From: Nitrososphaeria archaeon
GTDB lineage: Archaea > Thermoproteota > Nitrososphaeria > JACIWG01
DNA: 64,000 bases
Assembly (NCBI GenBank): GCA_050011875.1
Contig: JBEKIG010000003.1
Coordinates: forward strand, 64,001 to 128,000
Reading direction: 5' to 3'
Below the pieces are notes generated by a model. The model was given only the letters and a program-made list of their open reading frames with translations. It was not told the DNA's origin and did no database searches. This document shows, piece after piece, positions 2,290 through 39,700 of the stretch. The translations under genes were made by a program, and so were the position numbers. Within the stretch, counting starts at the first letter, position 1. Every line of letters starts with the position of its first letter.

Positions 2290-3570
2290 CTATTCCGTGC
2301 TCTGATCCCTCGACCTTCTTGGCAGGCTCGAACGCAATTCTTCGATCAGCGCCTTTCTTAGCGTTGTTTCAGATTTCTTTGTTTCTATAAGCCTCTGATG
2401 CATTACAGCTATTGCGAGTCTCCCAAACACTGATATCATGTAAACAAACTGCAGCGCTATAACTAGACCAAAGTATGGTTCACCCAGAGCGATGAGCACA
2501 CCTCCCGTGATTGAACCGAAAAGGTATGACATACCGGTTGCAAAATTATACAATGAAGTGCATACACCCCTCTGGCCTCCCGGCGTTGAATCAAACATGT
2601 ACGCCAGAACGCCTGTATCGTTCAGAGCCGAAAAGACCCCGCCGATAAGGTTTGCGATATATAGAAACATCATATCTGGGGAAAACGCGTACGCAAGAGG
2701 AAGGACCAGAAGGCCAGCCCTGGCAAAGACGAGAACAGGCACCCTACCTGCTCGATCGAACAGATGCCGGAAGACGTTCTGAGCTACAATATACGATACC
2801 ATAGCCGATATCTGTATTAAGCCGAATTCGAGAACACCCGCATTATGGACTTCAGCAAGGGTCAGCCCTGTCAGAGGCCACATCAAGGACATGAAGAAAC
2901 CGTAAAGAGAGCTCATGAGGACAAACTGGGTGAAAAGAGGGTTCGTTTTCGTAATCTTGATAAGGTCGCTGAAGAGCTGCGTTGACTCCTTTACGGGTTT
3001 CGTCTTAGGCTCCTTTATAAAATGGATTGAAATAGTCTGGAAGACTCCGAAGGCGATAGAAGCCAGGAACATGAACTGGAATCCAGACGCGCTTACACCA
3101 AAGATAAAATATACGGCGACAGAAGTGAATAGTGTGGCAATGAGGCTGCCGAAACCGTTGAGCAGGTTCAGCTTCGCCATGATCCCAGCCCTGTTCTCCA
3201 TCGTCGTCGCCTCCCCGATAAGCACGAGGAAAGCCGGCGTCATCATCGCACCCGCAGCAGACTGGATCGATAACAGTAGCACAAATTCCTTGGGCGTCCG
3301 CACTAATAGAATAGGGACGAAGATTACGAAGTAGATCACGCTTGCAATGTAAAGGATCAGCTTCTTCTTCCCCAGCCTGTCCGTTAAACTGCCGAAAGGC
3401 AGTTGGAACACGTTTGGAACAACGTTCACTGCAGCCTGTAGGAGACCTAAGTCAATAGAATTAGCTCCCAAGTCTATCGCAAAAAGCGTCAGGAAAGGCC
3501 CTGAAAGTCCCACCGCTAAAGCCAAGAGTGTTGCCCTTACAAACAGTGGACGATAAAATGAGGTGCTCAT
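2290..3570 (-). CDS. MFS transporter
   Basis: About 12 hydrophobic segments, motif A GSLTDRLGKK and its repeat LFDRAGRVP. Confidence 0.92.
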   Translation of the reverse strand: MSTSFYRPLFVRATLLALAVGLSGPFLTLFAIDLGANSIDLGLLQAAVNVVPNVFQLPFGSLTDRLGKKKLILYIASVIYFVIFVPILLVRTPKEFVLLLSIQSAAGAMMTPAFLVLIGEATTMENRAGIMAKLNLLNGFGSLIATLFTSVAVYFIFGVSASGFQFMFLASIAFGVFQTISIHFIKEPKTKPVKESTQLFSDLIKITKTNPLFTQFVLMSSLYGFFMSLMWPLTGLTLAEVHNAGVLEFGLIQISAMVSYIVAQNVFRHLFDRAGRVPVLVFARAGLLVLPLAYAFSPDMMFLYIANLIGGVFSALNDTGVLAYMFDSTPGGQRGVCTSLYNFATGMSYLFGSITGGVLIALGEPYFGLVIALQFVYMISVFGRLAIAVMHQRLIETKKSETTLRKALIEELRSSLPRRSRDQSTE

Positions 3571-5048: not shown

Positions 5049-5106
5049 AATAATACGAATGTCTTGTTCTCAGTCAATTATTTATACTTTATAAACAAAA
5101 AAAAGC

Positions 5107-6492
5107 TTACTTGATTTTTTCGATGAATTCTTTGTGCAATGCCCTGACAGCTTTTGCACCATCTTCTTCTTTAACAACAAAGCTTATGTTAAGCTCACTC
5201 GAGCCCTGAGCTATCATCCTAACGTTCACCCCCGCGTCGGCTACGGCTCTGAACATTCTAGCCGCAACACCTGGGGTACCTTTCATGCCCTCTCCGACGG
5301 TCGCTACAACCGAAATGTCAGCTTCCATTTCCATTCTTTTAGCATTTTTACCAATTTCCGAATCGAGTGCCCCATGCGCTCGTTCTAGGTACTGCTTCTT
5401 CATGACGACGCTGATGTTGGATTCAGAAACGCTCTGTGAAATCATCATAACGTTTATTTTGGCATCAGCAAGTAAATCAAAGAATTTTGCAGCTGTCCCC
5501 GCTTCTCCCACCATTGAAGCGCCTCTAACTGTCAGCATGCCCGTGTCTTTTATAAGAGAAATGACTTTAACGATAGAATAGTTTGGTTTTGAAGCCTTAC
5601 TCACGATCAACGTTCCATTGTGGGTCGGATTGAATGTGTTCTTCAGCCTGACAGGTATCTTCTTTTCTATTGCAGGTTCTAACGCTCTAGGATGCAGAGA
5701 CTTGGCACCTATTACGGCCATCTCTAGAGCTTCATCATAGGTTATCTCTGGAAGCGTTTTGGCTTCGGGTACGATTTTTGGATCCGCTGTCATTATGCCG
5801 TTAACATCGCTCCATATCAAAACTTCATCAGCTTCTATCGCATTTGCTATAATCGTCGCAGTGTAATCACTGCCACCTCTACCGAATGTTGTAACAATCC
5901 CTTCCTTTGTAGCGCCCGCAAATCCGCCGACAACGGGAATAGATCCTCCATTTAGAAGAGGTTCTAGATTAGCCTTAATATTCTCCCTTGTTGCTTCCAT
6001 TATTGGTGTCGCCTCCCCAAAACGATTGTTTGTCACAATACCTGCTTCCCCACCTGTAAATGATTTAGATTTGTAACCTGCGCTTAGTAGCGTCTCAGAA
6101 GCTATATCAGACGAATACCGTTCACCAAAACTTGTAACGTAATCAACGCTCCTTGATGTTGCCTCCTGTAGGTATAGGATTCCGTATAGAACATGCTCAA
6201 GTTCATAGTCCGCCTGGGACAAGCGTTCCTCAAGCTTATGGGGTATTTGGCCGACAGAATTCTTGGCAACCATCCGTTGGGTTTCTTTCAGATTGTTTAA
6301 AAACGCGTTCACCCATTTTTGGTCCCCCGACTCAGCTCTTTTCGTTGCTTCGAGCAGGTCATCGGTTACGCCTTTTAGCGCGGAGACGACTATGATAACC
6401 CTGTCATCCTTAAAGTTTGATAGCAGCTCTGATATCTTTTTGTATCCTGCATCCTTAACCGATGTACCGCCAAACTTCATTACATACTTCAT
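5107..6492 (-). CDS. ask: Aspartate kinase (two C-terminal ACT domains)
   Basis: KFGGTSV, VVSA..GVTD.L, GRGGSDYTA, DVNGIMTADP, QGSSELNIS. Confidence 0.96.
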   Translation of the reverse strand: MKYVMKFGGTSVKDAGYKKISELLSNFKDDRVIIVVSALKGVTDDLLEATKRAESGDQKWVNAFLNNLKETQRMVAKNSVGQIPHKLEERLSQADYELEHVLYGILYLQEATSRSVDYVTSFGERYSSDIASETLLSAGYKSKSFTGGEAGIVTNNRFGEATPIMEATRENIKANLEPLLNGGSIPVVGGFAGATKEGIVTTFGRGGSDYTATIIANAIEADEVLIWSDVNGIMTADPKIVPEAKTLPEITYDEALEMAVIGAKSLHPRALEPAIEKKIPVRLKNTFNPTHNGTLIVSKASKPNYSIVKVISLIKDTGMLTVRGASMVGEAGTAAKFFDLLADAKINVMMISQSVSESNISVVMKKQYLERAHGALDSEIGKNAKRMEMEADISVVATVGEGMKGTPGVAARMFRAVADAGVNVRMIAQGSSELNISFVVKEEDGAKAVRALHKEFIEKIK

Positions 6493-7659: not shown

Positions 7660-8100
7660 TCATTGGACTACAGTATTATTGGCCGCTTTCCAGGCCGTGA
7701 GACCTCCGAGCATGTTATATACGTGACGGAAACCGTTGTTAGCTAGTATAGTTGAAGCTTGGGCACTCCTAGTTCCCGTACCACAGTAGACCAGGATATA
7801 CGATTGAGGATCTAATTTACTAATATTCTCTTGTAGAGTGTTAATGGGGATACACATGGCTCCTTCGATGTGTCCGCTGTTAAATTCATCAAAGGTTCTA
7901 ACGTCTAGAATAACTAAACCTGTAGTATTTCTTATCAATTCTTTAGCCTGTTCAACCGTAACATCCTGATAACCTTTTTTTCCTGACTGGACACTCGGCA
8001 GCCATACATAGGAATAATAGATTACCACGGAAAAAACTATAGCTACGATAACCAGGATAACTGCAAGACGCTTTTGATTTATTGAGAGCCCTGTCTTCAT
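7660..8100 (-). CDS. Membrane-anchored single-domain rhodanese
   Basis: N-terminal TM helix, ILDVRT.DEF..GHIEGA, active-site YCGTGTRS, NMLGGLTAW. Confidence 0.9.
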   Translation of the reverse strand: MKTGLSINQKRLAVILVIVAIVFSVVIYYSYVWLPSVQSGKKGYQDVTVEQAKELIRNTTGLVILDVRTFDEFNSGHIEGAMCIPINTLQENISKLDPQSYILVYCGTGTRSAQASTILANNGFRHVYNMLGGLTAWKAANNTVVQ

Positions 8101-8415
8101 GCTCTATACCATCTGACTTCTATTAAAGATTCTTTGCTATAAACCTTAGTTTATAATCAAACCTTCTAGCGAAAAATGTTTTTTTTAGACGATTGACTTT
8201 ACTTCCTTAAGGATTTTCACGTTATCATAGACAGTAATTGAAGTCAAAAGCACAAACCTGATATTATGCGATAATGGAATTGGTTAAAGGAAATATAAAT
8301 GATCCTTCATAATTAAAACAGTAGATCTGATTACGCGATTTGATAACGATATCGTAGGCGTGTTAGACTCTCAACATGTTTAAATATCTAGCAACTGTTC
8401 CCTAAATCGGATTTG

Positions 8416-25013: not shown

Positions 25014-27161
25014 TTGATGGTTAAAGAGCAACATATTATTATGAAATTAGAAGACTTGTCTTCCACTATATTAAGCTTAGATCACGTGGACCACGTTATT
25101 CAAACAGCCTTTAAGGGTCACGTGAAGCTTGCCGCAGATCATATTTTAAACAGAGGGATGATAGGGCGTCTTGAAAAAACCGTTGGAAGTATAACGCGAA
25201 AGCTGAATTTAAAATTCTATGAGAGTAGATACCTTCCCTTACAGGAATCGATTATCGTTCGGACCAAATCTTATGCTACACTTTTAAATATCGCATTAAA
25301 TTTTTTTGGTTTTGAGCGTGTACTAATAGGGTTTTCAGAAGATGAGACAGAGATTGCTATTGACTATATAAGAAGAACTTTAGGAGAATGGGAAGAATAT
25401 GAAAAGAAATATTTTGCGACTACAATCGCAAAGGATGTCGTCGACGATTTTATTGCCGAAATGAAGATACCGATGTCCAAGAATTACAAACCACCCGGGT
25501 CGATGACCTCGAAGATAGGTGAAACCGTAGAAGGAAAGCTTAGGGCGGATGAGAGGATGTTGAGCTTTTTGGAGGCCGTAAAAGAGGAAGTTCAAGAAAA
25601 CATATACTATCGCATGAGTATTAAGAAGAACAAGTTCGGCAACGATTATGCTCTTGGTCTGAGGTGGCTGAGGCACTTGGGTTACGTTCAGGTTTCAACA
25701 AACCCAGTTCTAGCCGCCGCAGCATATGTAGATGATCCCTCTCTTTGGGATGGCTTTAAAGGAGAAAGCTTTTGTCAGGATTTCAAAACGGTGGCAAAGG
25801 AGAACAGAAAATGGTTAGATGAACCAGAAGCGTTCGCCGACGAAATTGCAATGAAGGCCACTGAGATATGTGTCTTTCCTAACCTAGCAGTGTTCAGGCC
25901 TATTGCTATAGCCTCAAACTTTGTACACGGCATGGTTAGCTATCAGCTCAGCCCGAATGTTAGTGGAAGCAGTAAAGAGAGTGTTAAGGATGCTTTACAT
26001 ATATATTCTGATGCCTCTAATTTTCTCAGAAAATATGACGAATATCTTCTGTGGGGATATAACGATCTCGACATTGAAAAGATGCGACCAAACATTGTGT
26101 TCAAGGTCTCTGGAAACAATTCTTCTTCTATCGATACAACACACGATTTGGAGAGTTTGGGAATAGGCACGAACAACACCGAGACTTATACTGTCTCGCA
26201 GGAGACGACTCTAATAATTTCTAAAATAGAGGGTAGAGCGAAAGCTGTCAAAAAAGGGATTCATGTCGGAACATCTTATGAAACTACTATGTGTGGACGA
26301 CTCAACGATTATTTACGTGAAAAACAGGCTAGAATAATGTTGGAAATGATGTATAACAAGACCAAAGACTTCTCTGCTATAGCACAACTAGCCAAAGATC
26401 TTGGTGTACAGGATGTAGGTGCTCTGTCTATCGAAAAGCTATTCGAGATATCTAGTGATCTCCGCTATCTTAGCTCATTAACGATTAAACCTTTCGTAAA
26501 ACTTGCTATGGAGGCAGATATGTTCGGAGGAACTAAGGAAGAAGTGCAGGCATACTTATCAAGGCTGGAGGACGATATCTGTAAATGTGGAATAGCCGTT
26601 ACACAAAGGGTTTATGAAGTCTTCTTTTTTCCGGAGAATAGGTCTAAGTGGCTAAATTACATCAGAGCCAGATACGAGCTGAATGAAGAGCAGACGGAGG
26701 AAGTTATAGCATTCATAGACATGCTTCCCGCTTCGAAGAGAAAACCTAGAGAGACATTTTTGACCCTGGCATCAAGTAACATGACTAATACAGAATTTCC
26801 AAACCATCAGACAAACGTCTTGAACGAGAGCAGGAAACCAGGTTTCAATTTAGAAGAATATCTGGACGCTGTTGTGAACAGAGTAGTTGAAGCTGAAACA
26901 ATACACAGACTTTTTGAAGAATATGAAGCGAAGGATGAATGCAGAAAAGCCTTACAACTTACACCTGCTATTTTGAAAAAGCTCAAAGAGGTTGGGGTAA
27001 ACGTGAAGTTCGGAGAAGATGGACTGACGCCTGAGGAATGGCCTAATTTTGGGGCTGTAATAAAAACTAAGAGCGAGTTCACAAGAGCTTATAATAATTT
27101 CAGGCAGGAAGCGGTTAGCTTTGTTAAAAAACAAAAAACACTTTATAGCACCATAAATTGA
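25014..27161 (+). CDS. Large transaldolase-family (class I aldolase) protein with N-terminal extension
   Basis: GNDY, VSTNP, PNIVFK (Schiff-base Lys), TNNT, GRL.D, LPASKR, TNT motifs in transaldolase order. 715 aa. Confidence 0.75.
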   Translation: MMVKEQHIIMKLEDLSSTILSLDHVDHVIQTAFKGHVKLAADHILNRGMIGRLEKTVGSITRKLNLKFYESRYLPLQESIIVRTKSYATLLNIALNFFGFERVLIGFSEDETEIAIDYIRRTLGEWEEYEKKYFATTIAKDVVDDFIAEMKIPMSKNYKPPGSMTSKIGETVEGKLRADERMLSFLEAVKEEVQENIYYRMSIKKNKFGNDYALGLRWLRHLGYVQVSTNPVLAAAAYVDDPSLWDGFKGESFCQDFKTVAKENRKWLDEPEAFADEIAMKATEICVFPNLAVFRPIAIASNFVHGMVSYQLSPNVSGSSKESVKDALHIYSDASNFLRKYDEYLLWGYNDLDIEKMRPNIVFKVSGNNSSSIDTTHDLESLGIGTNNTETYTVSQETTLIISKIEGRAKAVKKGIHVGTSYETTMCGRLNDYLREKQARIMLEMMYNKTKDFSAIAQLAKDLGVQDVGALSIEKLFEISSDLRYLSSLTIKPFVKLAMEADMFGGTKEEVQAYLSRLEDDICKCGIAVTQRVYEVFFFPENRSKWLNYIRARYELNEEQTEEVIAFIDMLPASKRKPRETFLTLASSNMTNTEFPNHQTNVLNESRKPGFNLEEYLDAVVNRVVEAETIHRLFEEYEAKDECRKALQLTPAILKKLKEVGVNVKFGEDGLTPEEWPNFGAVIKTKSEFTRAYNNFRQEAVSFVKKQKTLYSTIN

Positions 27162-29172: not shown

Positions 29173-30303
29173 TTACGATTTATGCAATGGATATTTACCG
29201 TATTTTCTTGCCTCATCGACCATAGTGTATATGTTTTCTACTTTAACGTTCGCATGAAGCGAATTGCTCGATGTTAGGACGTAGCCGCCTCCCTTCGCTG
29301 CCTCGTCTATACATCTTCTAACGTCCTTTCTAACCGCTTCCTCATTCCCAAATGGTAGAACATTCCTACAGTCAACGTTTCCTGCGAGACAAATTCTGCT
29401 TCCATATCTTTCTTTTACATCTTTCAAACTCATCGCCCCCGGCTCAATAGGATGGAGACCTGTTATTCCCGTATTAACGATGTCGTCAAGAATTGGGTAT
29501 AGATTTCCATCCGAATGCTTCATCAAGGGTATACCATGTTTCTTAGCGATATTTACTATCTCCTTCAGCTTTGGGAGTTCATATTCTCTGAAAAGTCTAG
29601 GGTTCATCATCGGACCTTTATTATCTGCGTAATCGTCTGTAACAAATAAAACATCGGTACCGGCTTCGATAAGGGATTTGGCAAACCCTTGACAGGTCTT
29701 TGAAATCTTGTCAAATAGCTTGCGGGCGAAGCTTGGGTTCTTGTAAAAGTCTATTGAAAGCTTGTCAATACCACCTCTAACTTGGAAAGCCATATGCCAT
29801 CCGCTGTGACATTGAGCCGTTATTACAATATCCTCTCCCCTTATCCTTCTGATTGTTTTCTGCATCATTTCTACGACATCGGGATGGAAAGGATCCGGAG
29901 GCTCGTAATTATCTAGATCTTCTGGAGAATTTATCGTACCTCCTACAAAGTATGTAGTTTTGGATCGCTGATCCGTCTGCATTATTCTACCCCAGTGGTC
30001 TATGTACCTCTTCTCGTCGATAAACTTGGGTTTATAGTCCTTGGTGGTTAGTGAATAGTCTGACATTGCCGCAACCGCATCGAAGTCGATCTTCTTGCAT
30101 GCTTCAAACATGGAAAGTCTATAATCTATAGACGACTGCCAGCTGTCGCTCCCCCCGGCCATATTTAATACTGTTCCAAGCTTCTTTCCCAAAATTGCTT
30201 CGACAATGGGTGGATCTGGACCTAAATCTGTTATCGGCACGCAATCTGGTTCCTTCAAATCAAGTGCTGCGAAGAATCGTTCCCGATGATTCATACAATT
30301 CAC
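29173..30303 (-). CDS. UROD/MtaA(MT2)-fold protein
   Basis: MNHRERF.AAL...EPD.VP, DHWG, DDYA...GPMMNP..FRE, HSDG, GLHPIEP, GNVD, GGGYVL.SSNS. Confidence 0.88.
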   Translation of the reverse strand: MNCMNHRERFFAALDLKEPDCVPITDLGPDPPIVEAILGKKLGTVLNMAGGSDSWQSSIDYRLSMFEACKKIDFDAVAAMSDYSLTTKDYKPKFIDEKRYIDHWGRIMQTDQRSKTTYFVGGTINSPEDLDNYEPPDPFHPDVVEMMQKTIRRIRGEDIVITAQCHSGWHMAFQVRGGIDKLSIDFYKNPSFARKLFDKISKTCQGFAKSLIEAGTDVLFVTDDYADNKGPMMNPRLFREYELPKLKEIVNIAKKHGIPLMKHSDGNLYPILDDIVNTGITGLHPIEPGAMSLKDVKERYGSRICLAGNVDCRNVLPFGNEEAVRKDVRRCIDEAAKGGGYVLTSSNSLHANVKVENIYTMVDEARKYGKYPLHKS

Positions 30304-30319
30304 TTACCTATATGTTGCA

Positions 30320-30405
30320 ATTATTCTTATAAGCTTTTAGCTAATCAGTAAGCCGATTCTGAACGTTGTTTGAGTGTTGATCTCAGCGAAACTTATAAAT
30401 GAAAG
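30320..30405. promoter_or_regulatory. Divergent BRE/TATA promoters for the UROD-fold gene and the RACo gene
   Basis: Minus strand AAAAGC-TTATAAG near 30327-30339. Plus strand CGAAAC-TTATAAA at 30387-30399. Each lies about 25-35 nt before its start codon. Confidence 0.6.
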
Positions 30406-30432
30406 CTTTTTAATGAAAAGTGAGCTTTAGAG

Positions 30433-32301
30433 ATGTCGAAAAGATTGCACAAGGTTACGGTTTATCCAAAGGCTTCAATTATATATACAAATGATGAAGA
30501 AACATTATTCGAAGCTTTACTTAAAAATGGAATAGAGATCGGGGGCATATGTGGCGGAAAAGGATTGTGCGGCAAATGTTATGTTAAGGTAGCTAAAGGC
30601 GCGGTATCGCCTTTGACTAAGCAAGAGGAAAGATGGCAAAGGGTTCTCGATTCAGATAGTAGACTGTCCTGCCAGATTCGTATTCTATCGGATGCTGAAA
30701 TAGAATTGAATCAGCAGTCAAGGGCTTCCGGAACCAAGATTCTTGTTTGGGGACGAGAAGTAAAATCAGAGCTAAAGCCGAATGTAACCAAGTGTAGGGT
30801 GGTGTTGAAGAAACCATCCCTAGAGGATCAAGAACCAGATCTTAACAGACTTCTCTTATATTTAGACATTGAAAGGTACGATAGCCTTATATTAAGAAAA
30901 GTTTCAAATGTATTGTGGAATTCTGATTTTGACGTCGACGTAGCTATTTTCGATGATGAACTAATCGATCTGTGTCCACATTTTGAGGCAGGTCACTTAT
31001 ACGGGATAGCTTTCGATATAGGTACAACAACCGTTGTTGGCTATTTACACGACCTAGAGGACGGAAAATTGTTAGCTATCAAATCTCACTACAATGAACA
31101 GATAAAATTTGGAGAAGACGTTATTAGCAGAATCGAGTTCGCAAACAGGAATGAAGAAAATCTGTCCAAGATGCATTCGGCGATAATTGAAACCGTAAAC
31201 AGAATCATCTCTGAACTTTTAGAAGAGGCAAAAGTAGATTCCGAAAAGATCTACGATATTGTCTGTTCCGGCAACACCGTCATGTGCTCTTTTCTCCTAG
31301 GGAATAGTGCCTACTTCTCTTCACGTGTACCATATATTCCACCTTTCACTTTACCCACGAAATCTAAGACAAGGGACCTAAAGGTTATATCAAACGGAAA
31401 CGCGTATCTTAGAACACTGCCTTCAATAAGTGCCTACGTTGGAGGAGATCTGGTGGCAGACATACTTGTTTCAGGAATACATAGATTTAAGGAACCTGCT
31501 GCTTTAGTCGACTTGGGAACAAATGCGGAAGTAGTCATTAAGACTGAAGACTGTTTCTTAGCATCTTCCTGCGCTGCTGGCCCCGCCCTTGAAGGATACA
31601 GCATAAGGAACGGCATGAGGGCGATGGAAGGAGCCATAGAGTCGGTGTCCATAAGCGAAGATAACAACGATGTCTTTTTCAAAACTATCGGTGGAACAGA
31701 ACCTTTAGGTATATGCGGTTCAGGAATCGTTGAAGCGCTGGCATGGATGAAGATAAAAGGAATTGTTGATAGAACCGGAAGAATAGTTCTTGGATCAAGT
31801 AAAAAAATCATCAAAGAAAATAGCGAACTTCAGTTTATACTCTTCCAAGAGAAAGGAAAAAAAATAGTTATAACACAAAATGATATTCGGAAGCTCCAGT
31901 TAGCTAAAGCAGCAATCTTCTCCACGTTACTGACGCTGGCAAAGCTGGGAAAGGTTGACATCAGAGACTTCAAGAAATTCTTCGTCGCAGGTGCTTTTGG
32001 CACATACATCGAGCCTTTTTACGCTACAGTGATTGGTCTATTACCTGAACTACCCAATGACAGATATATCCAGATTGGAAATGGCTCTGGTGCAGGTGCA
32101 ACAGCTCTGCTCTTGTCTAGAAATGAATGGAAGGAGGCAGACTCTATCGTTAAAAAAGTTAAAGTCGTCGAGCTCAACCTGATAAAGTTCTTTAAAGACG
32201 AATTCATCAACGCAACCTTTATCCCTCACAAAGATGAGACGTTATTCGACAAGACTCTGAGCTCGATTCGCCCCTTAGGTGGGAAACGAGATAGCGACTA
32301 A
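30433..32301 (+). CDS. ATP-dependent reductive activator of corrinoid proteins (RACo/DUF4445, ASKHA) with N-terminal [2Fe-2S] domain
   Basis: CGGKGLCGKC...RLSCQ, DIGTTTV, GEDVISRI, YVGGD, DLGTNAE, CAAGPALEG, GICGSG, DIRKLQLAKAAI, AGAFG. Confidence 0.93.
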   Translation: MSKRLHKVTVYPKASIIYTNDEETLFEALLKNGIEIGGICGGKGLCGKCYVKVAKGAVSPLTKQEERWQRVLDSDSRLSCQIRILSDAEIELNQQSRASGTKILVWGREVKSELKPNVTKCRVVLKKPSLEDQEPDLNRLLLYLDIERYDSLILRKVSNVLWNSDFDVDVAIFDDELIDLCPHFEAGHLYGIAFDIGTTTVVGYLHDLEDGKLLAIKSHYNEQIKFGEDVISRIEFANRNEENLSKMHSAIIETVNRIISELLEEAKVDSEKIYDIVCSGNTVMCSFLLGNSAYFSSRVPYIPPFTLPTKSKTRDLKVISNGNAYLRTLPSISAYVGGDLVADILVSGIHRFKEPAALVDLGTNAEVVIKTEDCFLASSCAAGPALEGYSIRNGMRAMEGAIESVSISEDNNDVFFKTIGGTEPLGICGSGIVEALAWMKIKGIVDRTGRIVLGSSKKIIKENSELQFILFQEKGKKIVITQNDIRKLQLAKAAIFSTLLTLAKLGKVDIRDFKKFFVAGAFGTYIEPFYATVIGLLPELPNDRYIQIGNGSGAGATALLLSRNEWKEADSIVKKVKVVELNLIKFFKDEFINATFIPHKDETLFDKTLSSIRPLGGKRDSD

Positions 32302-32374
32302 CATTTGAATTTCCTTTTCACTGTTCAAACAAAAGACTTTTAATGGCTCACAGCTGTCCCTAATTCAGAGCCTA

Positions 32375-33211
32375 ATGATACCTGTATTGCTTGTTACAGG
32401 AAAGGGAATAGCGGAAACGTGGGAAAAGTCTTTGAGCACGTTATGGAAAAACGGTATCAACATTAAGACCGAATATGATAAACCAAAAGATCCACCTAGC
32501 GTCGATGCTACAATGATTATGGTAGTAAGTGAACCTCTCTGTGAGCCAAGAATCCATCTATCTATTCCTTCTATGTTCAAGGACCTAGAGAAGTATAAAC
32601 AAGAAGTGATTGAAGGCGTTCATGACCATTGGATTGACCCAAAAAGCGGAAAATGGACTTACACATACCATCAGAGACTGTTCAAATATCCCACACGAGA
32701 GGGATTCATCGACCAAATCGATTATTTAATCAACAAACTTGCAAGTGTCCCCTACACAAGAAGAGCTCAGGCAATAACTTGGAACCCTATGTTGGACCCT
32801 TCAACAGACGATCCCCCATGTCTTCAAAGAATATGGCTCAGATGCACCGAAGAAGATGGTCAGTTAAAATTAAATATGAACACTCATTGGAGATCAAGAG
32901 ACGCCTACAAAGCAGCTTTCATGAACATTTTTGCTCTAACAGAACTACAGAAAAAAATTGCATCGATGCTCTCAAATAAGATCAAAAAGGCAATCGAAGT
33001 CGGACAGTACACGGATATTTCTGACTCATATCACATATACGGATCTTATTTAGACGACTTTAACAGCAGGTTCCTTAAGGCAATAGAATTAAGGGAATTT
33101 TATTCGGAGAACATACGCAATTCTCGAACCATAGCGAGTACACATCCTATTGTTCTAAAAGAGTTCGAGCAGGGCAAAATGGAACTGAAAAAAGAACTTA
33201 GATCCAAATAA
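32375..33211 (+). CDS. thyA: Thymidylate synthase (ThyA)-fold protein, archaeal/divergent type
   Basis: YTYHQRL, TRRAQA, catalytic PPCLQ, WRSRD, dUMP-specific Asn in AFMN, SYHIY. Confidence 0.8.
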   Translation: MIPVLLVTGKGIAETWEKSLSTLWKNGINIKTEYDKPKDPPSVDATMIMVVSEPLCEPRIHLSIPSMFKDLEKYKQEVIEGVHDHWIDPKSGKWTYTYHQRLFKYPTREGFIDQIDYLINKLASVPYTRRAQAITWNPMLDPSTDDPPCLQRIWLRCTEEDGQLKLNMNTHWRSRDAYKAAFMNIFALTELQKKIASMLSNKIKKAIEVGQYTDISDSYHIYGSYLDDFNSRFLKAIELREFYSENIRNSRTIASTHPIVLKEFEQGKMELKKELRSK

Positions 33212-33428
33212 TCGACCATTTTTTACGTGAAAATATAAATTGCGCAATAAGTCGATTTTTATTAGACGTGGAAAGTAGACACCATCTAAATCGTTGTTTT
33301 ATGCTCAAGTTATATAGTATTAACAGTGGAGAGATAGGGCATTTCATCTTCTAACGTTCACATACTTAATGTTGGAGTAGAATCTTCGAAATCTCACTAA
33401 GTAGCTATTCGCAAACTTTTAAAGGCAT

Positions 33429-34778
33429 TCAGGTTTCTAAGTAGTCTTTAACCTTGAGCTTGCCAACCTTTTGCTGGTAACTCGGTAGAGTTTGTTCGAC
33501 CTTCTTTAAAGGATCTCGATAAATATCATCCAATTTATCTTTCGCAGTCTCCAGATACCTTTTCTCGCTCTTGCCAAGTTTCAACCTTTGTTCTCCCATT
33601 ATCAAAATTGAAGCCTTTATTCCACTGGAGATAGTTCTAGAAAGCTCGTCCCCTCCACCGACTATGGCTCCCCCTATTTCACAAGCTATTTCTGGAGATA
33701 GAACAAAAGCCTGAGGGTCAACATATTTGTCGGATTCAACTAAAATAGTCTTCAGTTCTTGCTGCATTCCAATTTTTATCGCTGTGTTCATAATTTTTGT
33801 GTCATAGTGGAGAATCTCCAAAAAAACTTCGGGACCGTAGCCGCCGAAAAGCCTAATGTTTTCAACCTGCTCATTTGACCAGAGATCACACACTCCACCG
33901 ACAATATTTCCGACAAGACTCGAATGTGCGCAAGCAGCGGTCTTTCCTTCCAATGACATCGGGTAACCTGTTATTGCCTTAATAATTACATTTTCATAGG
34001 CGCAATCCTTTCCAGGTCCAACAGCACCCTCCTCGTACGCTACTAGACTTCTACATGCTGACATGGCCCTTACTATCGCTGCAAGAGAGTGGGGGATGAC
34101 GTTGTCTCTGAGACCCCCTGCAAGCCTCATTGAAGTATTACCAAATGCGCAGGCACTGTCACCACCCGCGATAACATTCTTATTCCTGGCGATTTTAACG
34201 ATTTCCCTCCACAATTTTTTCATATCATAAGTTGCCAAGTACCCTAATGCCGCGACAATTCCAAGAAGATCTTGCCTTATTACTGCGTAGTTAAAAAGTT
34301 CTTTTCCGCCTTCGGATTCTATCGAAAGGACATCAGCACCATTAGAAGCTACCTGCTCAAAAGCATCCATCATCCTATTAAATCCGCCTTCGTCGTTTTT
34401 TGGTTTGCCGAAATCCCTGATGTCTGGAACAGTTACTCTGAGAGCGAGTTGCATACCGTATTCTTTAGAATATGCATCTATCAGATTCTTCTGTAGTCTA
34501 GTTATTTCTCCTGGAAGAGTCGATTGCTGCATCTCAACATATGTCAATTCGGTTTCAAGCTGGAGTCTATCCACGCCTAAACTCGTTGCCCTCTTCAAAA
34601 CCTGTTCAGTTATAGCTTTGAACTCTTCCTTCGAATCTTTGCCTACTCTTGGAAAATACTTGACCTCGGGTACAACACGCCCTTTTCCTATCTCTAAGCC
34701 ATTGCCATATATCAGGGGATGGCGACTAAAACCAAAAACTAAGCTGTTTTTATCGAGCTCCACCCTGTTAAACTTCAT
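33429..34778 (-). CDS. mtaB: Methanol:corrinoid methyltransferase MtaB family
   Basis: GADVLSIES.GGKE, GDSAC..NT, GPGKDCAYEN, EGK..ACAHS...GN, DLWSNE. Zn-ligand Glu/Cys/Cys positions present. Confidence 0.92.
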   Translation of the reverse strand: MKFNRVELDKNSLVFGFSRHPLIYGNGLEIGKGRVVPEVKYFPRVGKDSKEEFKAITEQVLKRATSLGVDRLQLETELTYVEMQQSTLPGEITRLQKNLIDAYSKEYGMQLALRVTVPDIRDFGKPKNDEGGFNRMMDAFEQVASNGADVLSIESEGGKELFNYAVIRQDLLGIVAALGYLATYDMKKLWREIVKIARNKNVIAGGDSACAFGNTSMRLAGGLRDNVIPHSLAAIVRAMSACRSLVAYEEGAVGPGKDCAYENVIIKAITGYPMSLEGKTAACAHSSLVGNIVGGVCDLWSNEQVENIRLFGGYGPEVFLEILHYDTKIMNTAIKIGMQQELKTILVESDKYVDPQAFVLSPEIACEIGGAIVGGGDELSRTISSGIKASILIMGEQRLKLGKSEKRYLETAKDKLDDIYRDPLKKVEQTLPSYQQKVGKLKVKDYLET

Positions 34779-34802
34779 ACGGAGCCTGGCTCCTCCCCTT
34801 TC

Positions 34803-35462
34803 TTACTTTACCCACTGCTTGCAGAGTCTTACTCCTTCTACTGCGTTCGAGCCATAGCTGTCGGCGCCTATGCTCTTTGCAAATTCTTCGGTGACAGCCG
34901 CGCCCCCAATTATGACTTTAACCTTCTTCCTTAAACCAGCTTTCTTAAGCTCGTCTACAACGCTCTCCATTTCCACCATTGTTACCGTCAGTAGAGCTGA
35001 CATTGCGACTATGTTAGGCTTATCTTTCTTAACAGCATCGACGAACGCTTCTGGGGAGACATCAGCACCCAAATCTATGACGTTAAACTCAGATGCTTCA
35101 AGCATCATTGAGACAATGTTCTTTCCTATATCGTGAAGGTCACCTCTAACAGTTCCTATAACAACTTTCCCAATTTTCTTAATCTTGACACCCTTCAGCT
35201 TGGGCTCAAGTAGCTTTGTTACTTCTTTTCCAATTTCTCCAGCAACTATGAGCTCGGATAGAAAATATTCGGACGCTTCGAACTTTTTACCTACGATCTC
35301 CATACCCTGAGCTATACTTTTGAGGATTACTTCTTGTGGATCAACACCCATCTCCATAGCCTTTAGAGTATTCTCTTTCGATTTGTCAAAGTCAAGGTTT
35401 ACTATATTGTCGCGAATTGCTTCCAGAATCTCGTCTTTGTTCATGTCTTCTCGTCGTCTCAT
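34803..35462 (-). CDS. mtaC: Methyltransferase cognate corrinoid protein (MtaC-like)
   Basis: GM..VG.KF...EYFLSEL cap, GDLHDIGKNIV (B12 His-on), MSALL, IIGGA. Lies 24 bp upstream of mtaB. Start may be 35444. Confidence 0.93.
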   Translation of the reverse strand: MRRREDMNKDEILEAIRDNIVNLDFDKSKENTLKAMEMGVDPQEVILKSIAQGMEIVGKKFEASEYFLSELIVAGEIGKEVTKLLEPKLKGVKIKKIGKVVIGTVRGDLHDIGKNIVSMMLEASEFNVIDLGADVSPEAFVDAVKKDKPNIVAMSALLTVTMVEMESVVDELKKAGLRKKVKVIIGGAAVTEEFAKSIGADSYGSNAVEGVRLCKQWVK

Positions 35463-35604: not shown

Positions 35605-36558
35605 CTAAAGCGTATTATATGATTTTATAATTTCCGCGTGGTCTATTTTTCCATCCCCGTCTTGATCGTAGCCCTTAATTATCGAAGCATACCTTGATTG
35701 TCCGTTATAGAATTTTAGTGTCTCTTCTGACGGTTCTGTCAAACCAATTATGGCCGATTTTGTTCCGAGATGTCTAATACCAGCTATAATTATGATACAC
35801 TTTTCAGGGTCATAGGGATTTTTGATCTTTGATATTAAAGCATCCGTCTCCCCCTGGTACACATTGCCATCTTGATCAATTAGACCTGACCAATAGTTTG
35901 GCTCCGCAAACTTTATAGGAAGATGCTTATTTATTTCGGATGTTATAATATTTGTTATAGGACCTCCTACTAAAATGAGGTTTTCATTATATAATCGTTC
36001 AGCTTTTATATCCGTATCTAAACGGATAATGAAATTCTTTAGATTATTTGAACATTTTCCAAGGAAAAATGATAATTCTGCTGCATAGTGACCGTCTCGT
36101 GCGACAGCCCTAAAAGGCCCATGCGGTTCAGGTGAACCTACAACGATGTACCCATTAAACGAGTCGTCTTTGCAGAATTCTTTGAAAAATAAAGGGAATT
36201 TGTTATATAAATGATAAATTTTTAAAGCTTCTTCCTTTGGTTCTTTAAATAGTATTGTAATTCCATTATTTGACAAGAGAACTTTTTTTGCTCTAGCGCC
36301 GCGGATATTCTGTTCTTCAACTATGTTTATTATGCCAGATGTTAATAGTTTTTTAATGTGATAGTAAACACTTTGTTCGTTTAATGAAAGTTCTCTGGCT
36401 ATCTCTCTGGCATACTTTGGCTTGTCTTCGATAGAATGGATTATCTTCCAACTTATGTCATTTGATAATACTCTCGTAGGGGTTAAGTCAAAAAATACTG
36501 AAGTATGGGCAGTAAGATTCTTGTCTTCTTTTTGGTATGTTAAAAGTCCATCAACCAT
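35605..36558 (-). CDS. ArsR-like HTH transcriptional regulator with C-terminal ligand/S-layer-like domain, divergent from glmS
   Basis: PKYAREIARELSLNEQSVYYHIKKL HTH, then IVVGSPEPHGP, NLILVGGPITN, IAGIRHLGT. Confidence 0.8.
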   Translation of the reverse strand: MVDGLLTYQKEDKNLTAHTSVFFDLTPTRVLSNDISWKIIHSIEDKPKYAREIARELSLNEQSVYYHIKKLLTSGIINIVEEQNIRGARAKKVLLSNNGITILFKEPKEEALKIYHLYNKFPLFFKEFCKDDSFNGYIVVGSPEPHGPFRAVARDGHYAAELSFFLGKCSNNLKNFIIRLDTDIKAERLYNENLILVGGPITNIITSEINKHLPIKFAEPNYWSGLIDQDGNVYQGETDALISKIKNPYDPEKCIIIIAGIRHLGTKSAIIGLTEPSEETLKFYNGQSRYASIIKGYDQDGDGKIDHAEIIKSYNTL

Positions 36559-36698: not shown

Positions 36699-38477
36699 AT
36701 GTGCGGTATAATAGGTTACACAGGGGAAAATAGAGCGGCTTCAGTAATTTTTATGGCACTCAAACGATTAGAATATAGAGGATACGATTCCGCAGGAATT
36801 GCTACACTTGATGGAAATGGCAGGATCCAAATAAAGAAAGATATTGGACGCGTAGAAGAAATAAATAAAAAAATTGACCTTCAATCCATGGAAGGTACAA
36901 TGGGAATTGGACATACTAGATGGGCTACACATGGGGGAGTCACACGTGCAAATGCTCATCCTCATATTTCAAATAATAGCAAGATCGTTGTTGTACATAA
37001 TGGAATAGTTGAGAATTATCAAGAAATAAGAAAAATGCTTGAAGAAAATGGCTTCACCTTTTACAGTGAGACAGATACAGAAACGATACCCAATCTGATA
37101 GAATTAGAAATGCGAAAAGGAAAAAAATTTGAGAGTGCTGCAATTGATGCGATAAGACAACTTGAAGGATACTATGCAATTCTCGCTATGTGCGAGGGTG
37201 AAAGAAAAATAATTGCTGCCAGAAATGGTTCACCCCTTGTAGTAGGTGTCGGAAAAAAAGAGAGCTTTATTGCAAGTGACATACCTGCTTTTATAGAGCA
37301 TACAAAAGATGTGATATATGTGTACGATAAAGACTTTATAACTATAGGCTCCGATAATGAAATTAAATTCTTTTCGTTGAAAGAAAATAAAGAAGTGACA
37401 AGACCTATACATAGTATAGATTGGAGTGTTGACCAGGCGCAAAAGGGTAATTTTGACCATTTTATGATGAAAGAAATATCAGAACAAGTGGATACAATTC
37501 AAAAGGCAGCGAATCAAGATATAAAAAACCTATTTGCTGTTGCGGATGCCATTAACAAAGCAAAAGGAGTGTTTTTAGTTGCCTGTGGTAGTTCGTACCA
37601 TGCATGCCTTTCTGCGAGTTATATTTTTTCCAAAATCGTTAAGATGCATATAAATGTGGTATTAGCCTCAGAGTTCTCAAATTATGAACATTATCTTACT
37701 CCTGAAACACTTATAATAGCTGTCTCCCAGAGTGGAGAAACCATTGACGTCTTGGAGGCTGTCAGCACTGCAAGAAGAAAAAATAGTCAAGTTATGTCCG
37801 TAGTAAACGTAGTTGGTTCATCCCTCCACAGAGACTCAGATAGAGCTCTAATGCTAAATACAGGGCCAGAAATATGTGTCTTATCAACGAAGACTTATAC
37901 GGCACAACTAGCTGTTCTTTCGCTTTTGGCGTATACTGTAGCAGGTAGGTATGAAGAGGGTCTATCTAATCTTAGATATCTTTGGAATTCGATCTACAAC
38001 CTGACATCTGTAAGTACAAGAGAACATATAAAACAAATAGCTGATAAACTAAAAGACAAAGAGCACATATTCTTAGTTGGACGAGGACTGATGTACCCTA
38101 CTGCGTTAGAGGCGGCATTAAAAATCAAGGAGGTATCATACATTCATGCTGAAGGTTTCAGTGGAGGAGAATTAAAACATGGAACAATCGCTCTGATAGA
38201 AGATGGTACACCGTGTATAGTTTTTTCTTCAAGAGAAACTGAGAAGGATATCGTATCAAACGCAATGGAAATCAAGGCAAGGGGAGGATATATTATAGGT
38301 GTTAATTCAAAGAATAATCCCATCTTTGACTTCTTCATAAAAACACCTGATTCAGATATTTTGGACCCTATAACACACATAGTCCCGATTCAAATTCTTG
38401 CATATCAACTGGCAGTACTCCGTGGTTATGATCCAGATAAACCGAGAAATCTTGCTAAATCGGTGACTGTAAAATAA
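36699..38477 (+). CDS. glmS: Glutamine--fructose-6-phosphate transaminase
   Basis: MCGIIG, LEYRGYDSAG, GHTRWATHG, HNGIVEN, SQSGET, ELKHG, DKPRNLAKSVTV. Confidence 0.97.
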   Translation: MCGIIGYTGENRAASVIFMALKRLEYRGYDSAGIATLDGNGRIQIKKDIGRVEEINKKIDLQSMEGTMGIGHTRWATHGGVTRANAHPHISNNSKIVVVHNGIVENYQEIRKMLEENGFTFYSETDTETIPNLIELEMRKGKKFESAAIDAIRQLEGYYAILAMCEGERKIIAARNGSPLVVGVGKKESFIASDIPAFIEHTKDVIYVYDKDFITIGSDNEIKFFSLKENKEVTRPIHSIDWSVDQAQKGNFDHFMMKEISEQVDTIQKAANQDIKNLFAVADAINKAKGVFLVACGSSYHACLSASYIFSKIVKMHINVVLASEFSNYEHYLTPETLIIAVSQSGETIDVLEAVSTARRKNSQVMSVVNVVGSSLHRDSDRALMLNTGPEICVLSTKTYTAQLAVLSLLAYTVAGRYEEGLSNLRYLWNSIYNLTSVSTREHIKQIADKLKDKEHIFLVGRGLMYPTALEAALKIKEVSYIHAEGFSGGELKHGTIALIEDGTPCIVFSSRETEKDIVSNAMEIKARGGYIIGVNSKNNPIFDFFIKTPDSDILDPITHIVPIQILAYQLAVLRGYDPDKPRNLAKSVTVK

Positions 38478-38566: not shown

Positions 38567-39700
38567 CTATTCACTGTAGTACGTTTGCCCATATTTCCAA
38601 GCTTCATCGAACATGGCAACAATGTTCTCAGGCGGCGTAAATGGTTGGATATTATGAACCGATGCTAGAACGTATCCTCCGTCTTTACCTAACTGATTTA
38701 TTCTCAACCTAACTTCTTCTCGAACATCTGATGGTTGACTAAAAGGAAGAATATGCTGCGTGTCTATTGCGCCCCAAAAGGCGACCTTGTCTCCAAACTT
38801 CTCCTTTAGATCATTGCCATCCATCCCTTTTGCTGATACTTGGACAGGATTGATACCTGATACACCAGCATCAACAATGTCATCGATAAGGGAAGATATT
38901 GCCCCATCACTGTGAATTATTACCTTAGCTTTCGTTACACGTTTGAAGGCGTCAACGATTTTTATATGCTTGGGCTTAACGTACTTCCTATAAACTTGCG
39001 GCGATATTATGGCAGCTGTCTGAGCCCCTAGATCATCTCCAAAGAATACGAAATCGAGATAGTTGCCAATAGGTTTGACGTATTCTTCAATTAAACTAAC
39101 CATTATACCCGCAACTTTTTCCATAATGGCATCAGCAATCTTAGGATGCAGTATCATATCAGCTAGAAACTGTTGATAGCCTCTGAGAAGCATCGAATGC
39201 GCAAAGGAGCCAACTATTACATATGGCAGACCTACAGCGTAGTCCTGTTTAGTAAGTCTTTCAGCCTGATCGATCATATCTTCGAGATCATAAGAGATGG
39301 TGTGTGAATCAGGCCAATTGAATTGCTCTATCTCTTCCATATCTTTTGCCTTTGAGAGTGGGCTACCATCCTTTGTCACATCATAATAATATCCTGTGAA
39401 CCTCCTCTTAACACCCCATACATCTAGCATTTCTTTTGGATAGTTGAGCTCTTTTCCAGCAGATTTTGGATAGATATACCTCGTATCTACGTGAAATTTC
39501 CTAAGAACTTTTTCGTCTGGTCTAGACGACCCGCTAATCAAATCTAAAAGCCTGATTTTATCTACGTCTATCTTAAGATTTCTAAGAAGAGGTTTATATG
39601 CTTCAACATGTATCGTAGAAACTGTTCCACCCATATCGATAGGTATACGGTCAGGCTGTTCGTGGTTAAGTGCAGATAGAACTCTTTCTCTGGAGTTCAA
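38567..39700 (-). CDS. Second UROD/MtaA(MT2)-fold protein
   Basis: MNSRERV..AL.H..PDRIPIDMGG, DVWG, GDDLGAQ...ISP, HSDG, INPVQVSA, FWGAIDTQ, GGYVLASVHNIQ..TPPEN. Confidence 0.9.
   Translation of the reverse strand: MNSRERVLSALNHEQPDRIPIDMGGTVSTIHVEAYKPLLRNLKIDVDKIRLLDLISGSSRPDEKVLRKFHVDTRYIYPKSAGKELNYPKEMLDVWGVKRRFTGYYYDVTKDGSPLSKAKDMEEIEQFNWPDSHTISYDLEDMIDQAERLTKQDYAVGLPYVIVGSFAHSMLLRGYQQFLADMILHPKIADAIMEKVAGIMVSLIEEYVKPIGNYLDFVFFGDDLGAQTAAIISPQVYRKYVKPKHIKIVDAFKRVTKAKVIIHSDGAISSLIDDIVDAGVSGINPVQVSAKGMDGNDLKEKFGDKVAFWGAIDTQHILPFSQPSDVREEVRLRINQLGKDGGYVLASVHNIQPFTPPENIVAMFDEAWKYGQTYYSE

Follow-up and report, generated by a model that had tools for sequence, protein, structure and literature searches.

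A divergent ThyA-fold protein within an archaeal methanol:corrinoid methyltransferase cluster: a candidate for thymidylate synthesis from a methylated corrinoid protein

What is a thymidylate synthase-like gene doing inside a cluster of genes for methyl transfer from methanol to a corrinoid protein, and could its product take up the same methyl group? The question is raised by a 64,000-nucleotide (nt) stretch of a Nitrososphaeria archaeon (GenBank assembly GCA_050011875.1, contig JBEKIG010000003.1, positions 64,001 to 128,000), referred to here as the window, in which the cluster occupies positions 29173 to 35462. To our knowledge there are only two routes to thymidylate (dTMP), those of ThyA and ThyX, with methylene-folate as the carbon source in each. 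The original prediction was that the ThyA-like protein, here called ThyA*, makes dTMP from a methylated corrinoid without folate. Recurrent gene linkage and a modelled protein complex have strengthened that proposal, which may be right but in our view still falls a little short of an even chance. The genes of the cluster are as follows.

29173..30303, minus strand: URO-D-fold, MtaA/CmuA-like methyltransferase, MT2a (PF01208, 129.9 bits)
30433..32301, plus strand: RACo-type ATP-dependent reductive activase of corrinoid proteins (Fer2, RACo_linker, Raco_middle, RACo_C_ter (275.7 bits))
32375..33211, plus strand: ThyA*, a divergent ThyA-fold protein of 278 amino acids (aa) (PF00303, 45.7 bits, cut-off 24.3)
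33429..34778, minus strand: MtaB, methanol:corrinoid-protein methyltransferase, MT1 (PF12176, 500 bits)
34803..35462, minus strand: MtaC-type small corrinoid carrier (B12-binding_2, PF02607, 50 bits; B12-binding, PF02310, 96 bits)

The coordinates, strands and family assignments originally given for these five genes were all correct. ThyA* starts 73 nt past RACo on the same strand, and mtaB and mtaC converge toward it. RACo has an N-terminal 2Fe-2S ferredoxin domain and all four RACo domains were found; its AcsV-like match (433 bits) fell under the cut-off of 800. MtaB scored 470.6 bits against the NCBIfam model MtaB_Meth, under the equivalog cut-off of 720, and MtaC scored 187.7 bits against pyl_corrinoid (TIGR02370), under 215. 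MtaC consists of a cap domain and a Rossmann B12 domain with the DxHxxG motif (GDLHDIGKN), which is kept in 10 of 10 aligned proteins. The top NCBIfam matches of the URO-D gene, which is divergent from RACo, were of MtaA/CmuA type at 67–81 bits, far under cut-offs of 235–400 (81 vs 244); the MtaA models NF040654 and TIGR01463 gave 74.9 and 67.9 bits and failed their cut-offs of 400 and 235.4. Its product is a candidate methyl-corrinoid:acceptor methyltransferase, perhaps with a thiol as acceptor, or an MT1 for another substrate.

Judged by its genes, this locus serves methanol:corrinoid methyl transfer in an archaeon that is not a methanogen. The host genome (G000; 2.64 Mb in 119 contigs) is 97% complete, and neither MCR_alpha (mcrA), the criterion for methylotrophic methanogenesis, nor methylenetetrahydrofolate reductase (MTHFR) nor MtrH was found in it; FolP was the only Pterin_bind protein found genome-wide. 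There is thus no recognisable enzyme in the host for moving the methyl group from CH3-MtaC to a pterin or for oxidising it, and the cluster most plausibly feeds biosynthetic acceptors. The window itself contains no dihydrofolate reductase (DHFR), pterin methyltransferase, MetF or mcr gene, as had been noted, and the sole DHFR and Pterin_bind matches of the genome are on another contig (C20). The host genome has a core-MetE gene, and in relatives such a gene lies inside the cluster. The milder form of the proposal, in which methanol-derived one-carbon (C1) units enter biosynthesis in a non-methanogen, is well supported by this position in relatives and by the lack of mcrA, MtrH and MTHFR. MtaB, MtaC and RACo are each single-copy in the genome by tblastn, MtaC being the only such corrinoid protein. 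The genome holds about ten URO-D-fold paralogs against one MtaB, one corrinoid protein and one RACo, a ratio suggesting that one carrier serves many methyltransferases specific for different substrates or acceptors.

The ThyA* protein has the ThyA fold. Its AlphaFold model had a pLDDT of 85.4, and the top 50 listed of 396 Foldseek matches (E<=0.001) were all ThyA, with TM scores of 0.52–0.59; the top ones had TM scores of about 0.55–0.59 and 16–18% identity, and the nearest solved structure in the PDB gave E = 1e-7. Against the archaeal model TIGR03283 it scored 132.5 bits (E = 1.3e-38), short of the cut-off of 174.55, and the match covered only residues 6–224. The C-terminal extension, from about residue 225, is specific to the subfamily and lies outside that model. 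All the dUMP-handling motifs that were originally quoted (TRR, PPC, RSxD, Asn and HIY) are present, as T128-R129-R130, P147-P148-C149, R173-S174-R175-D176, N184 and H220-I221-Y222. In a profile alignment R129/R130, C149, R173/S174/D176, N184 and H220/Y222 correspond to E. coli R126/R127, C146, R166/S167/D169, N177 and H207/Y209, and the catalytic Cys and dUMP-binding residues were invariant in 15/15 subfamily members.

The cofactor side is less clear. The folate pocket of E. coli ThyA is formed by W80, W83, D169, L172, F176 and the C-terminus. The replacements in ThyA* relative to E. coli are W80 to H83, L172 to K179, F176 to M183 and H147 to L150, and the C-terminal region cannot be aligned. 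On the state of this pocket, one of the checks that had been proposed, the alignment cuts both ways: W80, L172, F176 and H147 are replaced, D169, W83 and Y94 have retained counterparts, and the aligned residues describe a pocket that is neither intact nor clearly gone.

Relatives of ThyA* are numerous. Among 8,000 scored candidates 7,542 matched at E <= 0.001, and 214 proteins in a representative protein library matched at E <= 1e-30. Archaeal members are found in Thermoproteota, Brockarchaeota, a Thermoplasmata-like class and DPANN, and bacterial members (55–62% identity) in Omnitrophota, Ratteibacteria, metagenome-assembled genomes (MAGs) labelled Planctomycetia, Elusimicrobia, Aminicenantes and others. 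Archaeal and bacterial members do not differ in their active-site residues, and one chemistry is probably common to the whole subfamily. Among the 150 family members listed, 10 long ones were examined; five contained inteins and one was an RNase H fusion. The intein-bearing proteins (P0121, P0138, P0142, P0170 and P0247; 427–736 aa) carry Intein_splicing/Hint domains, some with LAGLIDADG, and the match to ThyA* breaks at about residue 150, beside the catalytic Cys, in P0121 and P0138 and near residue 96 in P0142 and P0170. In the fusion protein (P0127, 451 aa) an N-terminal RNase H / RVT_3 domain is joined to the ThyA* domain.

The association with corrinoid genes was examined in 216 ThyA* loci (199 unique sequences), which were scanned with the proteins of the window and its relatives. 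A locus was counted as linked if a RACo, corrinoid protein, MtaB or MetE-type gene lay 5 kb or less from ThyA*. Among the unique sequences 24 were linked and 128 were not, while the flanks of the remaining 47 were too short, giving 24 linked among 152 informative loci. Every one of the 24 is from an archaeon, and a FastTree phylogeny requires at least five changes of state. The order seen in the window, RACo followed by ThyA* with convergent MtaB-MtaC genes, was found in other loci of the same family (L004–L009 and L087). Together with the URO-D gene it persists in this family down to 73% identity in ThyA* and 58% in RACo. MT2a holds the same position, at 76–95% identity, in L004–L006, L008 and L087. 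In L005–L009 and L087 ThyA* and the convergent mtaB abut or overlap by 0–15 nt at their 3' ends; the gap in the window is 217 nt.

Other lineages show other arrangements. In a family of another class (L168/L169) the order is coreMetE-MtaC-MtaB-ThyA*-RACo-UROD, while in the Brockarchaeota-type loci L010 and L170 ThyA* is followed by coreMetE, MtaC and MtaB, with RACo opposite. One Brockarchaeota-type genome has only ThyA* followed by coreMetE, and RACo. RACo is divergent from ThyA* and 187 bp away in L190, 1.6 kb away in L205, and accompanied by a corrinoid gene about 3 kb from ThyA* in L200. A Meth_synt_2 core enzyme adjoins ThyA* in L010, L011, L009/L169, L168, L170 and L088, and a more distant, convergent Meth_synt_2 paralog lies beside it in L012, L090 and L091.

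The most telling case of linkage is that of the Thermoplasmata-like class of genome G157. ThyA* was found in 4/37 genomes of this class, and in all four a corrinoid gene lies directly upstream on the same strand. The gaps are 30, 32 and 83 nt, the ThyA* of the fourth genome being truncated, and the pairs sit amid unrelated genes (thermosome, DUF835 and an endonuclease-IV-like TIM barrel). In one locus of this kind (L243, G495:C1, about 8004–8276) only about 90 aa of ThyA* remain, and a larger open reading frame (ORF) overlaps this piece; the upstream corrinoid gene is intact. As a rough estimate, chance adjacency to one of about five such genes would be near 0.5% per lineage, and four tight cases in a few dozen family-level lineages are well above this. 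The expectation that corrinoid, RACo and methyltransferase genes would be recurrent neighbours of ThyA* was thus borne out in archaea, in several differently arranged lineages, but failed in every bacterial locus.

A complex of two ThyA* chains and MtaC was predicted using 10-row alignments drawn from the same loci. The interface score ipSAE was 0.65, 0.66 and 0.62 for the ThyA* dimer with MtaC and 0.00 in all three controls, a wide margin (0.65 vs 0.00) by which the modelling that had been proposed for this pair comes out in favour of an association. The mark used is reached by 58/80 solved complexes and 2/110 mismatched pairs, a calibration that is only rough for self-made alignments and three chains. 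Contact agreement between runs was at least 87% and the pLDDT of the partner at least 84. Since there is no solved ThyA-corrinoid complex, a remembered known structure is unlikely to be the cause of the pass. In the model ThyA* contributes residues 62–68, 70, W86 (E. coli W83) and positions 227–263 of the C-terminal extension, which makes up half of the predicted interface; MtaC contributes cap helix 64–76 and the DxHxxG loop (109, 112, 115). Judged by the alignment with E. coli ThyA, this interface would fall where the folate cleft of ThyA* opens.

These results can be brought together in one scheme. MtaB moves the methyl group of methanol to Co(I)-MtaC, RACo re-reduces carrier that has been accidentally oxidised to Co(II), and URO-D-fold enzymes pass the methyl group to acceptors. 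At this locus MtaB would accordingly load the carrier, RACo would restore it after accidental oxidation, and the URO-D-fold enzymes, joined in relatives by core-MetE, would hand the methyl group on. ThyA* would be a further acceptor module, a step that we infer. As the catalytic Cys does in every ThyA, Cys149 would attack C6 of dUMP; the C5 enolate so formed would then react with CH3-Co(III) of the docked carrier, giving dTMP and Co(I). No pterin would be oxidised, and hence no DHFR would be required. The same partnership might operate throughout the subfamily, which elsewhere co-occurs with RACo and with small corrinoid proteins of a separate family; there other MT1 enzymes would load the methyl group. 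Two precedents make such chemistry plausible: in TrmA/RumA a Cys-activated uracil C5 attacks a methyl donor, S-adenosylmethionine (SAM), directly, and in TsrM methylcobalamin gives up its methyl group to a carbon nucleophile.

The case for a corrinoid partner is based on gene identity, recurrent linkage, co-occurrence and the passing complex model. Some functional coupling between ThyA* and a corrinoid protein is probable. Direct transfer of the methyl group from a methyl-corrinoid protein to dUMP is a more tentative proposal, and we put it forward as nearly, though not quite, an even bet. It would make ThyA* a dUMP C5-methyltransferase of the ThyA fold, to which a methylated small corrinoid protein hands its methyl group intact, possibly a third chemistry of thymidylate synthesis, a claim we advance with the same reserve. 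A literature search that included MJ0757, excluded supplements and had most subscription journals outside its coverage found no earlier proposal of a corrinoid- or methylcobalamin-dependent thymidylate synthase.

Co-occurrence across genomes was examined in 301 Thermoproteota genomes, in which ThyA* was called in 54 (at E <= 1e-20) and RACo in 121, the lists being cross-tabulated by eye. RACo was present in 51/54 genomes with ThyA* vs 70/247 without it, and in 21 of 25 other ThyA* hosts vs one of 14 control genomes, counts that are confounded by lifestyle and descent. A corrinoid frame of 212–251 aa was found in 22/25 of the other hosts. ThyA* was the sole PF00303 gene in 23/25. ThyX accompanied it in 7/25, in 4/5 family relatives and in both Brockarchaeota genomes, so that in genomes where ThyX stands beside a cluster-embedded ThyA*, the latter is not simply the one housekeeping enzyme. 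Such coexistence fits a ThyA* that is a second, methanol-linked route. FolA was found in one of 35 host genomes, which is the host itself (0/9 family relatives, 0/25 other hosts). The check that had been proposed, whether hosts of ThyA* lack folA and thyX, thus gives a lack of FolA in 34/35 genomes, a weak argument, and no such lack for ThyX, given the 7/25 hosts and 4/5 relatives that have it.

In the bacterial phylum of G159, ThyA* was found in 58/65 genomes, a frequency that offers no contrast between ThyA* and RACo, and one orthologous small corrinoid protein was found in 62/65. At 16/18 loci these bacterial corrinoid proteins were closer to the archaeal protein that is operonic with ThyA* (47–55% identity) than to MtaC of the window (39–46%); in L229 this was reversed (39% vs 42%). 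RACo was adjacent to these lone corrinoid genes in 4/18 loci and a URO-D-like gene was present in three (L227, L231 and L234); tblastn of the 18 loci found no MtaB or core-MetE beside them, MttB-, MeTr- and MtrH-type MT1s not being screened. Their other neighbours are housekeeping genes (plsY, gpsA, a formyltransferase, MerR and dnaK). In L223 a small MerR-family gene (5053–5379) is found about 1.6 kb away from the corrinoid gene, with orthologs within 4 kb in L221, L222, L224 and L234. Here the MerR and corrinoid genes stand in a plsY-gpsA housekeeping block, an arrangement that resembles split CarH-type B12 regulators.

Besides the confounding of the RACo counts, several findings weigh against direct methyl transfer. 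D176, the equivalent of E. coli D169, is invariant in 15/15 subfamily members, as are the counterparts of W83 (W86) and Y94; D169 is the pterin-anchoring Asp that opens the cofactor ring, in agreement with the title of PDB 1bjg. We know of no methyl transfer from methylcobalamin to a pyrimidine carbon. No fusion of ThyA* to a B12 domain was seen among the 10 long members examined, and none of the bacterial loci scanned was linked to corrinoid genes. Bacterial neighbours of ThyA* are instead MiaA, PolX, a dGTPase-like HD protein and sigma/anti-sigma genes. In nine loci (L016, L017, L025, L036, L044, L045, L048, L101 and L113; the named ones are Omnitrophota or Ratteibacteria MAGs and two are metagenome contigs) folK (HPPK) lies 2–5 kb from ThyA*, and in one locus serine hydroxymethyltransferase (SHMT) is about 600 bp upstream. 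The folK-bearing bacteria that lack FolA, which among the sampled hosts include those of L016 and L045, make folate, and another, unrecognised dihydrofolate reductase is implied. Because they reduce dihydrofolate otherwise, a missing FolA is weak evidence. Two DPANN hosts (G156 and G158) and a third host with a 0.9-Mb genome (G153) encode ThyA* but neither RACo nor a carrier-type corrinoid protein, the B12 matches annotated in G158 and G153 being B12-radical-SAM enzymes. The one in G158, a member of Pacearchaeota (L244:905–3724), is a 939-aa B12-binding radical-SAM protein split by an intein with a LAGLIDADG domain. A supporting observation, a charge reversal near the modelled contacts, was made among 32 genome-matched pairs, K69 of ThyA* occurring with corrinoid E/D76 in 12/12 and E/D69 with R/K/H76 in 18/20 (exceptions G155 and G165), but the swap essentially splits two clades and so amounts to about one event, which is weak though in the right direction. 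One row from the other clade was also in the alignment used for the complex model.

The host genome adds a further point of this kind. It encodes SHMT and a folP-folK-folA operon (C20:4227–6105, locus L084), so the canonical SHMT-ThyA-DHFR cycle is complete here. FolA was found in 0/9 other family genomes and Pterin_bind in 0/5 relatives examined. The 3.8–14 kb stretch of C20 has no DNA match in the congener G005, and the first 3.7 kb of the contig are repeats common to several G005 contigs. The tetranucleotide make-up of the contig is typical (rank 20 of 33 contigs of at least 10 kb). Contamination was considered and set aside, as the typical composition and the flanking repeats appear native. 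The folate operon looks genuine but accessory, possibly a transferred folate-synthesis island.

One alternative is that ThyA* is an ordinary reductive thymidylate synthase of the archaeal type, acting on a methylene-pterin (tetrahydrofolate or a modified folate), with the synteny reflecting C1-biosynthesis genes that were inherited or transferred together. Every dUMP residue and the counterparts of D169, W83 and Y94 are retained, the fold is that of ThyA, and the nearest curated family is an archaeal thymidylate synthase model. ThyA* is the only PF00303 gene in a genome-wide search of the host, in which ThyX was not found either, and it is the only ThyA/ThyX-type gene in 16/25 other hosts. Inteins in 5/10 long members and the RNase H fusion fit an essential DNA-precursor enzyme, folK or SHMT is near ThyA* in 10 bacterial loci, 128/152 informative loci are unlinked, and the host has both SHMT and the folate operon. 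Cell extracts of Methanosarcina and Sulfolobus form dTMP from formaldehyde and modified folates, as summarised in PMC9931769. The same paper states that archaeal ThyA enzymes have never been purified and characterised, and PMC9012536 describes the cofactor specificity of archaeal thymidylate synthases as hard to predict. An ordinary enzyme leaves much unexplained, however: the tight corrinoid-ThyA* pairs amid unrelated genes in 4/4 genomes of one class, the linkage in at least four differently arranged lineages, the passing complex model, and the ThyX-bearing relatives that keep ThyA* within the mta cluster. The absence of any Pterin_bind protein from five family relatives and of FolA from nine also speaks against it. 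Archaeal linkage, the scarcity of FolA, the complex model, the corrinoid-ThyA* pairs and the coexistence with ThyX led us to downgrade this explanation, which we consider possible but rather doubtful.

Two further explanations keep or discard the corrinoid partner in other ways. The carbon could come from methylene-pterin and the two electrons from a Co(I) corrinoid maintained by RACo, the pterin leaving in its tetrahydro form so that neither DHFR nor an MT1 is needed. This would suit the bacteria and the Thermoplasmata-like class, in which the partner-type corrinoid gene stands alone or with RACo, with no MtaB nearby (within the limits of the screen given above) and a URO-D homolog only in L227, L231 and L234; the retained D169 counterpart, FolA in 1/35 hosts and the passing complex model would also be accommodated. 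No case is known to us in which cob(I)alamin gives a hydride equivalent to an exocyclic methylene, and re-reduction at the expense of ATP in each catalytic cycle would be costly. Beside the partner in the window and in Brockarchaeota lie MtaB and core-MetE, a methyl-transfer set; we rate this hybrid as highly improbable. Nor do we think it likely that the association is regulatory or spurious, the corrinoid protein being a B12 or light sensor, or linkage and complex model being false positives, with the function of ThyA* unrelated. The MerR-type genes near lone corrinoid genes in five loci (L221–L224 and L234) point that way, as do the 7/44 blind-picked neighbour pairs that pass the same complex test and a calibration that is not strictly applicable to the alignments used. 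RACo, MtaB and core-MetE are catalytic parts of methyl transfer and not sensors, though, and the controls scored 0.00 while linkage recurs in independent arrangements, and this explanation is accordingly improbable.

Beyond mtaC the window contains three further features that bear on the limits of the cluster.

35605..36558, minus strand: winged-helix (ArsR/HTH_20-type) protein with an S-layer-like C-terminal part (HTH_20, HTH_5 and S_layer_C matches)
36699-38477: glmS, which separates the second URO-D gene from the cluster
38567..39700, minus strand: second URO-D-fold methyltransferase paralog, MT2b, at the cluster edge (PF01208, 100.1 bits)

The winged-helix protein is a possible regulator beside mtaC, its place in the system being uncertain; among 80 loci scanned a homolog occurred only in the near-identical locus L004. 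MT2b scored 57.6 and 55.3 bits against the MtaA models NF040654 and TIGR01463, under their cut-offs, and flanks the cluster at 59–97% identity in L004–L008 and L087. On the other side of the cluster a 715-aa ORF (25014–27161, plus strand) has only a sub-threshold TAL_FSA (transaldolase) match of 26.2 bits (cut-off 27) and no NCBIfam match. Two observations concern the neighbours of ThyA* elsewhere. In three archaeal lineages that are not related to each other (L181:8774–9643, L200:9239–10171 and L242:2151–2954) ThyA* is followed, at a distance of no more than about 0.5 kb, by an AP_endonuc_2 gene (endonuclease IV / xylose-isomerase-like TIM barrel), which may be a link to DNA repair. In L012 a D-2-hydroxyacid dehydrogenase gene identified by Pfam (847–1803) immediately precedes ThyA* in the same orientation, and in L091 an ORF of the same size, 318 aa, is similarly placed (2582–3538); the L012 enzyme could belong to the serine pathway and supply C1 units.

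If ThyA* does accept a methyl group from a corrinoid protein, it would represent a new class of thymidylate synthesis that combines two known kinds of system, corrinoid methyltransferases and an enzyme of the ThyA fold. Many uncultured anaerobes would then depend for their DNA synthesis on cobamides and not on the folate redox cycle, with ThyA* as the main source of dTMP in whole anaerobic lineages (58/65 genomes of one bacterial phylum and many Thermoproteota). The presence of ThyA-type genes in genomes without FolA would be accounted for, archaeal ThyA would gain a donor that can be tested, and a role would be found for the orphan small corrinoid proteins carried by nearly all genomes of one bacterial phylum. 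In non-methanogens MtaBC would supply both methionine and thymine directly with methyl groups from methanol. Brockarchaeota are described in PMC8065059 as having MtaBC without a known second methyltransferase, and ThyA* would be that missing enzyme in non-methanogenic methylotrophy of the Brockarchaeota type. Should the proposal be refuted, the recurrent ThyA-corrinoid operons would still call for an explanation.

Compared with known systems, ThyA* shares with canonical ThyA (E. coli and L. casei; PF00303) the fold, the catalytic Cys, the phosphate-binding Arg pair and Arg-Ser, the uracil-reading Asn and the His/Tyr that contact the 3'-OH. It differs in its 16–18% identity, the replacement of W80, L172, F176 and H147, the added C-terminal extension, the lack of FolA in 34/35 of its hosts and, in archaea, its linkage to corrinoid genes. 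TIGR03283 (thy_syn_methano) is the best curated match, and its members are likewise biochemically uncharacterised according to PMC9931769, but ThyA* misses the equivalog cut-off and the model stops before the C-terminal extension. Like the proposed ThyA*, ThyX makes dTMP and yields no dihydrofolate; it shares no homology with ThyA and is missing from the host genome. The MtaB/MtaC/MtaA system of Methanosarcina with its RamA/RACo-type activase has counterparts of every part at the locus, namely an MT1, a DxHxxG carrier, an activase and URO-D-fold MT2 candidates. The locus differs in that its host is without mcrA and MtrH, its URO-D proteins are far under the MtaA cut-offs, and a ThyA-fold gene is embedded in it. 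TrmA/RumA and TsrM have folds unrelated to that of ThyA*, and neither pairs a separate corrinoid carrier with a ThyA-fold enzyme. The closest in logic are the core methionine synthases MesA, MesB and MesC, folate-independent biosynthetic acceptors for which a corrinoid methyl source is predicted, the methyl group being drawn directly from corrinoid proteins (Price et al. 2021, PMC7857596). Those enzymes are TIM barrels with zinc and a thiolate nucleophile, whereas the nucleophile of ThyA* would be a carbon enolate.

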